A stretch of 64,000 nt of DNA from Escherichia coli (GTDB lineage: Bacteria; Pseudomonadota; Gammaproteobacteria; Enterobacterales; Enterobacteriaceae): the NCBI RefSeq assembly GCF_044647545.1, contig NZ_CP172818.1. One strand, given 5' to 3'. Shown here piece after piece: positions 22,115 through 54,319 of this stretch. The translations under genes and the position numbers were made by a program. Position 1 is the stretch's first letter; each line of letters opens with the position of its first letter. The notes under the pieces are model-generated. The model was given only the letters and a program-made list of their open reading frames with translations. It was not told the DNA's origin and searched no databases.

Positions 22115-22147
22115 GCCGGACAGGCGGTTAACGCCATATCCGGCCTG
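22115..22147. repeat. REP (repetitive extragenic palindrome)-like element between ibaG and mlaB
   Basis: gccggacaggcggttaacgccatatccggcctg resembles the E. coli REP consensus GCCGGATG..GCG....CGC..ATCCGGCCTAC. Confidence 0.4.
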
Positions 22148-48433: not shown

Positions 48434-49119
48434 AGCACCGCCTTTTTCATCGCTGTGTTGTACCACTGACAAATGTGTTCAAGACGCGTAATGGCAGAAC
48501 CGACCGTCACCGCCCACGCGCCGTGGCGCATCGCATCCGCCGCCTGAGCAGGCGTGTTGTAACGCCCTTCGGCAATCACCCGACATCCGGCGTCGCTCAA
48601 CGTTTTCACCAGCGCCAGATCCGGCTCTTCTGGCGTTTCAGGTGTGGTATAGCCAGAAAGCGTGGTGCCAATAATTTCGGCTCCCAGCTTTTGGCAAGCC
48701 AGGCCGTCTTCCGGCGTTGAGCAGTCGGTCATCGCCAGTAAACCGTGATGGTGAATACGTGCCAGCAGCGTTTCAACAGGCACCGGACGCGGACGATCGG
48801 TGCCATCAATCGCGATGATATCCGCGCCTGCCTGCGCCAGCGCATCGACATCTTCAATATAGGCCGTGATGCGTACCGGAGAATCCTCCAGATCGCGTTT
48901 CACAATCCCGATAATCGGCACACTCACCACCGCACGCGTGGCTTGCAGATTTGCCACACCTTCAATGCGAATGGCGACCGCACCCGCCTGCTCTGCAGCT
49001 AATGCCATGGCGGCGACGATTTCGGGTTTATCGAGCGGGCTGTCAGGAACCGGCTGGCAGGAGACAATCAGGCCACCGTTAGCAGCGATTTTTTGATCCA
49101 GTTGTGCAAGTAACGACAT
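48430..49119 (-). CDS. nanE: N-acetylmannosamine-6-phosphate 2-epimerase
   Basis: ORF ...[77 protein letters not shown]...; start moved to MSLLAQ (229 aa). Confidence 0.9.
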
Positions 49120-49166
49120 ACATCTTCCCTTAGCGAAAGGCCCGGTACAGAGACCGGGCAACAGGA

Positions 49167-50657
49167 TTAACTTTTGGTTTTGACTAAATCGTTTTTGGCG
49201 CTGCCAAACGGCACGGCACCGCTAAATGGTTTGCCGTCGATAGCGTCATGAGTACGCAATGCTTCCGGGCGCAGCCAACGCTGAACGCGAGAAGGCATAT
49301 CCAGACCAATCAGCAGGATCACCACAAACGTCAAACTGAACGAGAGCGATGCCAGCGCAGTACCCAGATCCAGACGTTGAGCGATCAACGCGCCGATGAT
49401 TGGGGCCAGTGCGCCGCCCAATGCGCCAACGTTGTAGGTAAAGCCCAGGCCCGCTGCACGCTGGTCGGTATCGAAATAACCGCCAATCAGTTTCGGTAAG
49501 ATCCCGGCGATCCCTTGTCCAAGCATTTGCTGGAAGAACAGTAACAGACCGAGCACCCAGACGTTTGCGCCGCCAATCGCAAATACCGGAATAATCAGCA
49601 GCTGCGAGGCCAGCAGACTACAAACGTACGCTTTGCGGGTTCCCAGCCAGTCACCGAGGAAGCCACCGACGCAGCACCCCACCGCCGCGCCAAAGCCACT
49701 AAAGAACAGCACATTGGCGACAGTATGCGGGTCATAAGCCAGATCGGTTTTCAGATATGTTGGCAGCAGCGCCTGAATCGGCCATGAGTAGAGGAAAGCA
49801 AACAACACGACCACCATCAGCATTACGCCCGTTGGCCAGCGTTTGCCCGTACTCTGCACCATAAAGCTGATAAAGATTGCGGCGCATAACAGCCCAAGAA
49901 CAGCGACGATCGCGGCATTTTGCAGGTTACCGGCGAAGCAGAACCACAGCGCAGTAGCCGCCGCCAGTGTCATTACGATATTGGCAATGCGATGTTCACC
50001 ACGGTAGAGAATATCCACCATTGTGCGTACCGGTGCTTTACCCCCGTGTTTCTCTTTCCAGTCTTCCGCTTCCGGGATGTTTTTACGCAGCCAGAGAGCA
50101 AAGATGATTGGCAAAATGCCGATAAAGAACAGCGCACGCCAGCCCCAGACCGGAACCACCAGACTATAGACCTGAGCGGCAACGACGGCCCCCACTGAGA
50201 AGCCTGAAATCAGAAAACCACTGGCTTTGTTACGCAGATGCTTTGGCCAGCTTTCAATGACATAGGTGGCGCTGGAACCGTATTCACCCGCCATCCCCAT
50301 GCCGATGACCAGACGAGCGATAAACATGGTGATGTAGCCTGGCGCAAAGCCGCAGGCCAGCGTCCCGGCCGAGAAGAGAACGATGCTGGTGACCATTGCC
50401 AGACGACGCCCGTAGCGGTCACCCATAGCGCCGAGCATCAGGCCGCCGAACCAGCGAGAGATAAAGGCTGCGGAGATCAGACTTGCCGCCTGCACCGTCG
50501 TGAGCCCGAATTCACCCTGTACTTCGGTGAGTACTAGGGCGATTAAAACGAAATCAAAACCGTCAAGCAGATATCCCAACCAGGCAGCGGAAAATGCCCG
50601 CCATTGTGCGCGGTTAAGATGGCGATACCACGGGATATTCTGGGTTGTAGTACTCAT
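49167..50657 (-). CDS. nanT: Sialic acid transporter (MFS)
   Basis: ORF ...[65 protein letters not shown]...; start moved to MSTTTQ (496 aa). Confidence 0.9.
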
Positions 50658-50765
50658 TGTGAGTCTCCCGCGGTGGGCGATGCCCACACGCTTTGGTATG
50701 AAAATTGTAGGGTACAGATGCGTTTATTTCCCCTCACCCGGTAGGGGCGAGCGAGGGGAAAAAAC

Positions 50766-51659
50766 TCACCCGCGCTCTTGCATCAACTGCTGGGCCAGCG
50801 CCTTCAGTTCTGGCAGATATTTTTCATCTACCGGACCAAACGGTTTGCGGCACAGCGGCACAGAAACGACATCCATATAATGCAGGACAGTTTTCAGGCC
50901 GCGGAATACGCCCGTTTTGATCAGTAAATCAATGACTTTGTTGCACTCAGTTTGCAGTTTCTGCGCGGTCTGGATATCGCCTTCTTTCAGCGCCTTAACA
51001 ATGCCCTGATAACGCCAGCCCATGATGTTGTAGGTACTACCGATACCACCATCAGCGCCCGCCAGAAGACCAGAGGCGAAGATTTCGTCGTAACCGTTAT
51101 AGAGCACCAGATCAGGATGTTCACGACGGATCTGCTCCATCTGATAGAGATCGCCAGAAGTCTGTTTCAGCGCACCGACGCCAGGCAACGTAACAAGTGT
51201 GTTGATCTGATCCAGGGTAAGTTTTACCCCACTCAGGGCTGGAATGTTGTACACCACCATCGGCAAACCATCCGCTGAATCAATAATTGCCCGATAGTGA
51301 TCGCAGTGTTCTTCAAAGCTGAAAGGATAGTAGAACGGCGTAACGGCAGAGACGGCATCGAAGCCATAACGTTTAGCCGATGCCGCAAGTTGTTGGCTTT
51401 CAGCAGTGCTGACGCAACCTACGTGAGCGATGAGTTTAATCTTGCCTTTCGCCTCTTCGGCGACGATTTCCAGTACCTGTTCACGCTCGGAAAGGCTTTG
51501 TACAAAGGCTTCGCCGGTAGAACCACCCACGTATAAACCGTCGATGCCCTGCTGAATATTGAACTGAACCAGGCGACGCAGACTCGCTTTATCCAGTGCT
51601 TGTTGTTGATCAAAAGGAGTCAGGAGTGCGGCCATTACGCCACGTAAATTCGTTGCCAT
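50766..51659 (-). CDS. nanA: N-acetylneuraminate lyase
   Basis: 297-aa [85 protein letters not shown]... Confidence 0.95.
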
Positions 51660-51694
51660 AAATACCTCTGAAGTGATGCTTGTCTGATAAACGA

Positions 51695-51717
51695 TATACC
51701 TTTATACCTGTTATACC
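51695..51717 (-). promoter_or_regulatory. NanR operator: three direct GGTATA hexamer repeats (Nan box) in the nanA promoter
   Basis: Plus strand tatacc-tt-tatacc-tgt-tatacc (GGTATA x3 on the nanA strand), about 40-60 bp upstream of the nanA start. Confidence 0.55.
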
Positions 51718-51780
51718 AGATCAATTAAGCAACACCCCATACAGAAAGCTTATAATGCGATCTGCTTCACTAAAGTGGCA

Positions 51781-52572
51781 TTATTTCTTTTTGTTGGTGG
51801 TCTGACCGAAGGCGTGCCAGGTAGCAGAGACGCTGTTGAGATGCGATTGCAACGCGCGATCGGCTTCATCGGGATCGTGGCGGCGGATCGCGTCAACGAT
51901 CGCAATATGCTGTTGATAGCTAACGTTGTTATGCTCGTGCAGAGCCTGATCAGCCACGGTTGGACGTGCGGCGATCAGCCAGTCGAGCAGGGCAACGTGG
52001 ATCGCCATGAAGATTGGGTTACCGGGGATCTCCGCCAGCACGCGGTGGAAATCAACGTCTGAACGAATGAATGCCGCGTTGTTATCCAGCGACTGACTGT
52101 TGATTTCCAGTGCTTTTGCCAGCAAATCGATTTGCTCATCGGTGGCGTGTTCAGCCGCATAGCGCACCAGGCTGGATTCAAAGAACAGACGTAATTGTTC
52201 GAAATGGGCAATCCCGCCAGGATGAGAAAGGAAATCTTTCGCCATGCCGGAAAGCTCGCCGATGATGGTGTCCGCAGAAGGACGTGAGACGCGAGCGCGT
52301 TCGCCGTTGTTTATCTGCACCAGACCTTTGCGTTTTAACGCTGCCAGCGCTTCACGCACCGAAGGACGCCCGACATTAAAGAACGCCATCAGTTCGCGTT
52401 CAGACGGTAATTGTTCACCTTCGCCAAATTCACGACGGCGGATCATCTGTTCCAGCTCTTCTTCCACCATTTCGGAGAGTTTTTTACGCGCCAGCGGGCG
52501 GCTGCGTAAGTTGCGGCCAATTACAGGTGAAGAATCTTCGGTTTGCGAATCAAATGCGTTCATAAGGCCCAT
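51781..52572 (-). CDS. nanR: GntR/FadR-family transcriptional repressor NanR
   Basis: 263-aa [89 protein letters not shown]... Confidence 0.9.
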
Positions 52573-52951
52573 TCTGTAAGGTCAGTGTGATTAACATCAT
52601 CAGTGACATCCTATCACAGGATTGAAAGTAGGGGGAAATGGCGGGGTTTTCTCTTTGTGCCTCATCATTACTATGATTAACTGAATAATTAACTATTGCG
52701 AAAAATTAATGTAACGCAGATAAAAACATCCCGATTGAATTATTCATAAGACTATTAACAAGTATTATGAATATTATGAATGTGTTCTTACAAAATAATC
52801 ATAAGCGCATATTTTTTAATGAAAAATCACCTCATCTACAATTAAAAACACGACATCCGCACCATAAATAGCCTTGCAAAAAATATAACATCATTGTTTT
52901 CAATCTGCCGTTTATGGGATTGACCGTTTTCTTTTGACACGGAGTTCAACA

Positions 52952-54319
52952 ATGTTCGGCATAATTATATCTGTCATCGTATTAATTACGATGGGCTATT
53001 TGATCCTGAAAAACTACAAACCTCAGGTGGTGCTGGCTGCCGCAGGTATCTTCCTGATGATGTGCGGTGTCTGGTTAGGGTTCGGTGGTGTGCTCGATCC
53101 CGCCAAAAGCAGCGGCTACTTGATCGTCGATATTTATAATGAAATCCTGCGCATGCTGTCCAACCGCATTGCCGGATTGGGGCTGTCGATTATGGCAGTG
53201 GGCGGTTATGCCCGCTATATGGAGCGCATAGGGGCAAGTCGCGCGATGGTGAGCTTGTTAAGCCGCCCGTTAAAACTCATTCGCTCGCCGTATATTATTC
53301 TGTCGGCAACTTACGTCATCGGCCAAATCATGGCGCAGTTTATTACCAGCGCCTCCGGTCTGGGTATGTTGCTGATGGTCACCTTATTTCCGACGCTGGT
53401 GAGTCTGGGAGTAAGTCGTCTCTCTGCGGTGGCGGTTATCGCAACCACCATGTCCATTGAGTGGGGGATTCTGGAAACGAACTCCATTTTTGCTGCCCAG
53501 GTCGCAGGAATGAAAATTGCCACTTACTTCTTCCACTACCAGCTTCCGGTCGCCTCTTGCGTCATTATCTCGGTGGCGATCTCCCACTTTTTCGTGCAAC
53601 GCGCTTTCGACAAAAAAGATAAAAATATCAATCACGAACAGGCAGAGCAAAAAGCTCTCGATAATGTCCCACCGCTCTATTACGCCATTTTACCGGTGAT
53701 GCCGTTAATCCTGATGCTCGGCTCGCTGTTCCTTGCCCACGTCGGGCTGATGCAGTCAGAACTGCATCTGGTGGTGGTGATGTTACTGAGTTTGACGGTG
53801 ACGATGTTTGTTGAGTTCTTCCGCAAGCATAACTTGCGCGAAACAATGGACGATGTGCAGGCGTTTTTTGACGGCATGGGTACGCAGTTTGCCAACGTGG
53901 TAACGCTGGTGGTCGCGGGTGAAATATTTGCGAAAGGCTTAACGACGATTGGCACTGTCGATGCGGTTATCAGGGGGGCGGAGCATTCTGGTCTGGGCGG
54001 TATTGGCGTGATGATTATTATGGCGCTGGTCATTGCCATTTGTGCCATCGTGATGGGCTCAGGCAATGCGCCGTTTATGTCATTTGCCAGTCTTATTCCG
54101 AATATCGCAGCCGGACTACATGTACCAGCGGTTGTAATGATTATGCCGATGCATTTTGCCACGACGTTAGCGCGCGCTGTTTCGCCGATTACTGCGGTGG
54201 TGGTCGTTACGTCAGGAATTGCAGGCGTTTCGCCTTTTGCGGTAGTGAAGCGGACAGCGATCCCCATGGCAGTCGGTTTCGTGGTGAATATGATTGCCAC
54301 TATCACGCTATTTTATTAA
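52952..54319 (+). CDS. dcuD: Anaerobic C4-dicarboxylate transporter DcuC-family protein DcuD
   Basis: ORF track starts at a TTG (52934); start placed at ATG 52952 ([43 protein letters not shown]...) with GGAG 8 bp upstream; multi-TM, 455 aa. Confidence 0.85.

Follow-up and report, generated by a model that had tools for sequence, protein, structure and literature searches.

REP/BIME elements (PU) are imperfect palindromes of about 35 nt, with a GCC[G/T]GATG...CATC[C/A]GGC core and an adjoining GTAG, and REP stabilisers were reportedly described in malE-malF by Newbury et al. in 1987. BoxC is another family of palindromic repeats, of which an older list by Bachellier is said to hold 32 copies. 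Also known as PIT (potential intrastrand triplex) and TMECO, it was studied by Bachellier et al., Hoyne et al. 2000 and Holder et al. 2015 (PMC4666352). The canonical element reads CCCTCNCCC - N3-6 - GGGNGAGGG - N3 - GGGNGAGGG, and the 23 copies of MG1655 are all intergenic and belong either to type A (TTA linker) or to type B (CCG linker) (PMC4666352). Copy #18 occupies the lldD-trmL spacer of MG1655 (Table 1 of Holder et al. 2015, PMC4666352). BoxC elements display neither promoter nor terminator activity and no function has been assigned to them, their loci are unusually variable, and intact TMECOs gave no triplex footprint in vivo (PMC4666352). Finally, within the gal operon, a hairpin at the 3′ end of galE is described as a stabiliser of the promoter-proximal cistron once Rho has terminated transcription or RNase E has cut the RNA, resulting in expression polarity (PMC11925234). 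The hairpin studied here, located between nanA and nanT of Escherichia coli, would add a degenerate two-block remnant to the BoxC family, which has been catalogued only as intact three-block copies.

The nanA-nanT spacer and its stop-proximal hairpin

We analysed a 64 kb stretch of E. coli chromosomal DNA, referred to as a whole as the window. Its nanA and nanT genes are separated by an intercistronic spacer of 108 nt (50658-50765). In the direction of the mRNA, the locus is laid out as follows:

50766-51659, minus strand: nanA coding sequence (N-acetylneuraminate lyase), with its stop codon TGA at 50766-50768, from the ORF list, RefSeq and the MG1655 annotation
50722-50765, minus strand: hairpin 1 at its full extent, 18 bp, with a U-run on the 5′ side and an A-run on the 3′ side, as folded by RNAfold
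50730-50758, minus strand: G+C core of hairpin 1, made of CCCCTCGCTCG (50748-50758), the loop CCCCTAC (50741-50747) and CGGGTGAGGGG (50730-50740), with two G.U pairs
50692-50721, minus strand: unpaired A/U- and C-rich spacer segment (AUAAACGCAUCUGUACCCUACAAUUUUCAUACCAAA), single-stranded in the centroid fold
50670-50691, minus strand: hairpin 2, GCG-U-GUGGGC-AUC-GCCCAC-CGC, -15.6 kcal/mol, z -3.4
50655-50669, minus strand: nanT ribosome-binding region, with the Shine-Dalgarno GGGAG at 50665-50669 and the ATG at 50655-50657, read directly
49167-50657, minus strand: nanT coding sequence (sialic acid transporter), from the ORF list, RefSeq and the MG1655 annotation

Of 5426 complete E. coli genomes, 5408 were found by BLAST to have this spacer, once each and flanked by genes annotated as nanA and nanT; in almost all of them it is at least 98% identical, a variation too small for a within-species selection test. 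MG1655 has a spacer of equal length that differs by 1 base, and its record carries no repeat annotation at this place. In the literature searchable in full text, neither a hairpin between nanA and nanT nor a processing site or an sRNA at this place was found described, and Vimr's review does not mention the spacer. To look beyond E. coli, we extracted each nanA-nanT spacer from 80 nanA loci of species-representative genomes. The GGGAG and ATG of nanT could be aligned in nearly all of them; in Leclercia and Silvania the Shine-Dalgarno is GGAG, and the nanT of one locus (L080) starts with GTG. We also noted a strong RNA 3′ end 45 nt into the nanA ORF (MG1655 3373531, minus strand, at about 51614 of the window) in the available part of the Term-seq supplements of Adams et al. 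2021, a possible sign of premature termination, or of processing, near the start of the operon.

The original prediction proposed a GC-rich hairpin in the spacer, and its quoted string, ttcccctcacccggtaggggcgagcgaggggaa, is found at exactly 50728-50760, where it had been placed. The outer stem that it described (cccctc/gagggg) is correct. The inner stem (cccgg/ccggg) had been misdescribed: on the plus strand only CCC/GGG pair at that place, and it is on the mRNA strand that pairing continues through two G.U pairs. The core of hairpin 1 is thus an 11-bp stem (50748-50758 with 50730-50740) closed by a 7-nt loop (50741-50747), which seven flanking pairs, six U-A and a closing G-C, lengthen to an uninterrupted 18 bp. 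On the mRNA strand these 44 nt read GUUUUUUCCCCUCGCUCGCCCCUACCGGGUGAGGGGAAAUAAAC and start 1 nt past the nanA UGA.

RNA folding gave a stable structure, with -24.3 kcal/mol and z = -4.81 for the sense RNA, and none of 200 dinucleotide shuffles was equally stable. The antisense RNA reaches -18.6 kcal/mol (z = -2.75), and the complete spacer RNA folds at -52.1 kcal/mol (z = -4.77). The hairpin is stable in all eight Escherichia variants (-20.7 to -29.9 kcal/mol), and its 29-nt core occurs only once in the window, even when 3 mismatches are allowed. Hairpin 1 is therefore real, stable and more than chance; in form, it is an ordinary intercistronic hairpin.

It had also been called an attenuation element, which would make it a transcription attenuator or terminator that cuts the read-through from nanA to nanT. 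A stable GC stem between two cistrons would suit such a role; moreover, the spacer downstream of it is C-rich and G-poor, and Rho loading is possible there in principle. However, no U tract follows the stem on either strand: the sense stem is followed by AAAUAAAC and the antisense stem by AAAAAAC. As on both strands the U residues come before the stem and the A residues after it, opposite to the order in a terminator, hairpin 1 is not an intrinsic terminator. In addition, a consensus scan detected no terminator-like site in the spacer, and PIT/BoxC elements, to which hairpin 1 is related below, were found to be without terminator activity (PMC4666352). The available part of the Term-seq supplements of Adams et al. 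2021, in which the operon was uninduced, lists no 3′ end in the spacer. An attenuator or terminator is thus largely refuted and hardly credible at this site.

Probable relationship of hairpin 1 to the BoxC family

The same prediction offered a degenerate REP-like element as a second identity. It was right in that hairpin 1 is probably a degenerate interspersed palindromic repeat, and wrong about the family. A REP/BIME origin could have been expected, since this very spacer holds REP/BIME instead of BoxC in Salmonella, Citrobacter, Enterobacter and Lelliottia (L013-L047 and others). However, when we built a profile from 14 REPs of the same spacer in Salmonella and Citrobacter, the comparison returned no match in 50658-50765 at E <= 10. 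Over the whole 64 kb it found no convincing REP (best E = 0.4 at 22132-22146), so that the window offers no internal positive control for this profile. By inspection, the GTAG..GCCGGATG..CATCCGGC core is absent, and it is the BoxC profile that matches instead. At the level of sequence, a REP identity is already refuted, and we give it virtually no credence. Rfam provided no other candidate: a cmscan of 49000-53000 at E <= 10 gave only two chance-level matches to eukaryotic families, located elsewhere, and no family match for hairpin 2.

We compared the nan element, side by side with its flanks, with 21 BoxC copies. A profile of the three-block 36-nt core ranked it first in the window, yet at E = 3.6; as such a value is unusable alone, this profile was replaced by one that combines type-B copies with their flanks. 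It was built from seven MG1655 BoxC copies extended by 14-nt flanks, none of them from nan loci, and six further BoxC-bearing regions of MG1655 served for flank comparison. The match obtained is the following:

50719-50764, minus strand: BoxC type-B profile match over model positions 7-61, nhmmer E = 6.4e-4, 15.5 bits

This is the sole significant match in the 64 kb, the next one, unrelated, having E = 11. Control loci totalling 486 kb gave 42 matches at E <= 1, every one of them in a true BoxC site or in a nanA-nanT spacer. A two-block regular expression run over 550 kb recovered only Escherichia nan spacers and the collapsed lldD-trmL copy described below, and nothing in 20 shuffles. At 13-16 bits, the significant BoxC score of the nan element is modest, and it hinges on the flanks.

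The alignment to the profile indicates what was lost and what was kept. The 12-nt middle G block is deleted and block 1 contains an insertion of 3-4 nt (a CTCG duplication). Block 1, the type-B CCG linker, block 3 (GGGTGAGGGG) and the flanks TTTTCY (5′) and GAAAT..CGC (3′) are retained. The nan element thereby carries the type-B signature, which consists of the CCG linker and the flanks TTTTCY (5′) and [G/T]AAAT..CGC (3′). Its membership is further supported by full BoxCs found, intergenic as well, at the orthologous position in relatives. The three-block BoxC regular expression has no match in Escherichia nan spacers, the defining architecture being absent from them. With the middle 12-nt block lost, a three-strand (intrastrand triplex) fold is impossible and a plain hairpin remains. 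For these two reasons, the element is classed with degenerate remnants rather than with canonical BoxCs. In E. albertii and in strain E69 the elements score slightly better on the opposite strand; the orientation of the remnant is ambiguous because it is nearly palindromic. Altogether, the comparison of sequences indicates that hairpin 1 is very probably a decayed type-B BoxC (PIT/TMECO) copy.

The flanks themselves are of interest beyond nan. In MG1655 (loci L003, L084-L089), the 5′ flank of type-B copies is ..GGCAC.(N)TTTTCY and their 3′ flank [G/T]AAAT..CGC; in type-A copies, these are ..CGGTC and GAACAGGCC..GCAC, respectively. As the two types have distinct conserved flanks, the repeat unit is longer than the 36-nt TMECO core.

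The collapse from three to two blocks has a parallel elsewhere in the genome. In a sensitive BLAST with the 52-nt nan element, the sole match outside nan was partial and lay in the lldD-trmL spacer. The site reads CCCTCGCCCCTCCGGGGAGAGGGCCGGGGTGAGGGG in MG1655, and an allele that lacks the middle block reads TTTTTTCTCCCTCGCCCCTCCGGGGTGAGGGGAAAAGG; the nan element is nearly identical to the latter (TTTTTTCCCCTCGCTCGCCCCTACCGGGTGAGGGGAAATAA). BoxC #18 is polymorphic, with about 2280 E. coli genomes carrying a two-block form and about 1200 a three-block form. In the two-block allele, a 12-13-nt deletion of the middle block leaves a plain hairpin (L002 1501-1535 versus L003 2110-2169). BoxC copies recurrently decay by such a collapse from three blocks to two, a route reported here for the first time, which converts a putative triplex element into a simple hairpin.

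Comparison of the spacers across species dates the nan copy to before the radiation of Escherichia. The two-block hairpin is present in all six other Escherichia representatives (E. albertii, E. whittamii, two further Escherichia species and two E. coli strains). In other genera, full three-block BoxCs lie straight after the nanA stop at three loci (L009, L012, L049) and partial ones at two (L011, L025). The spacer of Pseudocitrobacter faecalis contains two full, inverted BoxCs and that of Enterobacter sp. kpr-6 two full copies. In Kluyvera, blocks 1 and 2 are accompanied by a truncated block 3, whose terminal GGGGAAAT junction is that of E. coli. The positions are homologous across these genera, because the downstream segment with TTCATACCAAAGCG and hairpin 2 is common to all of them. 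The 403-nt spacer of Pseudocitrobacter vendiensis (L012 3388-3742) harbours five BoxCs, of which one is of type B and inverted; the other four are of type A and form a 73-bp tandem array (TRF, 3.4 copies, 94% matches), which shows local BoxC amplification. It is thus largely shown that a decayed BoxC was already in the nanA-nanT spacer of the common ancestor of Escherichia. While the family itself and repeat-derived intercistronic hairpins were already known, the nan hairpin as a two-block BoxC remnant fixed in Escherichia is new.

BoxC is not the only structure found at this place. Raoultella, Edwardsiella, Leclercia and Atlantibacter possess other strong hairpins in the nanA-nanT spacer, and in 52 of the 80 species the spacer folds at z < -2 by means of unrelated elements (REP/BIME, BoxC and others). 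Trabulsiella (L046, L048) has a spacer of only 32-33 nt and no hairpin, and such a structure is therefore dispensable in some species.

Could the element act as DNA instead, as a cruciform, a triplex or a protein site, for instance for the sigma-54 holoenzyme? RpoN gSELEX peaks were reported in the nanT/nanA and ygfF/gcvP spacers (PMC8743547), and by coordinate conversion the latter (L087) holds BoxC #10 and #11. However, the remaining BoxC loci are absent from the text of the gSELEX paper. The best sigma-54-like match, TGGTATGAAAATTGTA at 50694-50709 on the plus strand, lies outside hairpin 1, and this motif is at chance level, with 117 matches in the window for 128 expected. As to the triplex, the two blocks left cannot form one within a strand, and even intact TMECOs produced no triplex footprint in vivo (PMC4666352). 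We consider a DNA-level element very improbable.

Constraint on hairpin 1 and the covarying hairpin 2

Has a decayed BoxC copy been kept for a purpose, or is it a leftover? Among Escherichia sequences, 16 of 265 aligned positions of hairpin 1 differ, for about 17% at nanA synonymous third positions. Evolving about three times more slowly than synonymous sites, hairpin 1 is therefore constrained, less so than the unpaired spacer segment (4/204) or hairpin 2 (5/180). Across the eight Escherichia sequences, the 3′ arm does not vary at all. Four core positions do vary, each of them in the 5′ arm and with pairing preserved in the sense RNA (G.U to A-U, U.G to C-G, C-G to U.G), and all five one-sided changes in the hairpin retain sense-RNA pairing. 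That four of four core changes are confined to one arm is only suggestive, and no two-sided compensatory covariation was seen in hairpin 1 among the Escherichia sequences compared.

We had also considered the greater stability of the sense RNA as a sign of function at the RNA level. It was rejected, since lldD-trmL BoxCs, including intact ones, share this asymmetry; being inherited from BoxC orientation, the sense-strand advantage is not evidence of selection.

These data bear on a neutral reading, in which the hairpin is the relic of a selfish or neutral BoxC insertion in a permissive spacer, with no selected effect on nan expression. BoxC elements have no demonstrated function and occupy unusually variable loci (PMC4666352), and the spacer has received different repeats according to the genus (REP/BIME, BoxC or none), as would a landing pad. 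Hairpin 1 is moreover the fastest-evolving segment of the spacer and lacks compensatory covariation. A relic nevertheless fits poorly with a divergence about one third of that of synonymous third positions, with an invariant 3′ arm facing a 5′ arm in which each change keeps pairing, and with the persistence of the element. Indeed, it is at least 95% identical in 5408 of 5426 E. coli genomes and is found in the six other Escherichia representatives, four of which are outside E. coli proper. We regard a neutral relic as possible, though doubtful.

The interval first proposed for the hairpin-forming element (50688-50765) ends short of hairpin 2, a second and independent hairpin (50670-50691) that directly adjoins the nanT Shine-Dalgarno. 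In a comparison of 21 species (at least 10 genera, from Escherichia to Buttiauxella and Franconibacter), 98.4% of the cells for its six inner pairs are paired, with compensatory changes at four of the six pairs; slid controls pair at 27-50%. It contains sense-strand G.U pairs and is absent from the Salmonella/Citrobacter type of spacer. In Escherichia, five of 180 positions differ. Of the two hairpins, hairpin 2 is the stronger candidate for an RNA structure under selection.

The unpaired segment that separates the two hairpins is the slowest-evolving intergenic segment in Escherichia, with 4 differences in 204 when counted over 50688-50721 (GCAT...AAGCGT). Within it, TTCATACCAAAGCG is near-invariant in 10 aligned sequences, a few of which differ by one base, and it varies as little among the genera that possess hairpin 2. 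Conservation of an unpaired stretch suggests a sequence-specific role, for example as a cleavage, binding or standby site.

Proposed role in nan expression and comparison with known systems

A role of hairpin 1 in mRNA stability or processing is plausible, given its stop-proximal position, its reduced divergence in Escherichia and the presence of other strong hairpins at the same place in other genera. We can propose the following sequence of events. Hairpin 1 would be transcribed within the nanATEK-yhcH mRNA and form its 18-bp stem-loop 1 nt past the nanA stop, without terminating transcription. An endonuclease would then cut in the conserved single-stranded segment downstream of it. The stem would block 3′-to-5′ exonucleases, so that the nanA cistron would outlive nanT-nanE-nanK, and the nanT segment would have the covarying hairpin 2 as its 5′ cap. 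From this, one expects NanA at or above NanT, which fits the known need for the lyase against toxic accumulation of sialic acid (PMC3658417). By analogy with described intercistronic hairpins, we tentatively see as the likeliest role of hairpin 1 that of a passive 3′-exonuclease barrier or processing structure favouring nanA over nanT, at clearly less than even odds for this mechanism taken by itself. Taken jointly, BoxC identity and an mRNA-barrier mechanism form the best explanation of the element, to which we attribute a probability of roughly 55%.

The position of the stem could also have an opposite effect. As it starts 1 nt after the UGA, a terminating ribosome must melt it, and it might act as an obstacle to translation termination that stalls ribosomes, triggers trans-translation and lowers NanA. 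Liang, Rudd and Deutscher are said to have described in Mol Cell in 2015 that a REP within about 15 nt of a stop codon causes ribosome stalling and trans-translation. The stop codon of nanA is at 50766-50768 and the first paired base at 50765, and the stability of hairpin 1 is greater than or comparable to that of the Salmonella REPs at this site (-16 to -20 kcal/mol). However, the lowest seven pairs of the stem are weak U-A pairs, and less NanA conflicts with the physiological need for a lyase excess. Such an obstacle is, in our view, improbable.

Beyond the exonuclease barrier, the whole 108-nt spacer might be a conserved processing module that sets the lyase:transporter stoichiometry. The domesticated BoxC remnant, hairpin 1, would be the 3′ stabiliser of nanA, the unpaired segment an entry site for an endonuclease or a regulator, and hairpin 2 a 5′ cap or a translation element for nanT. 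We hold this broader proposal to be rather unlikely. If true, it would bring a first function for a BoxC-derived sequence together with an unrecognised cis-regulatory hairpin before nanT in many Enterobacteriaceae. Similarly, if hairpin 1 stabilises the mRNA of nanA, this would amount to the domestication of a repeat, again with a first function for a BoxC-derived sequence, and would help to explain the excess of lyase over sialic-acid transporter in E. coli.

The working model for the nan hairpin is the same as that of the REP/BIME stabilisers of malE-malF: a stop-proximal stem acts as a 3′-exonuclease barrier and the proximal gene outlasts the distal one. In contrast with these stabilisers, the nan hairpin has no sequence relation to REP and no GTAG motif recognised by RAYT, and its role is predicted. 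The hairpin of galE is not repeat-derived and its role was shown experimentally, whereas that of the nan hairpin is deduced from the features above.

The closest relatives by sequence are found within BoxC/PIT/TMECO. Blocks 1 and 3 of the nan element (CCCTCG..CCC and GGGTGAGGGG) are identical to those of the family, including the G.T 'mm' position. The CCG linker, the TTTTCY and GAAAT flanks, the intergenic location and the position close behind a stop codon are shared as well. Unlike the canonical copies, the nan element has no middle GGGNGAGGG block, carries a 3-4-nt CTCG duplication and does not figure in the list of 23 MG1655 TMECOs (PMC4666352). The two-block form of BoxC #18 in lldD-trmL has the same architecture as the nan element, a succession of a T-run, CCCTCGCCCC, a short loop, CCGGGGTGAGGGG and an A-run. 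It differs from the nan copy by the absence of the CTCG duplication and by being polymorphic in E. coli, whereas the nan copy is fixed in the genus.
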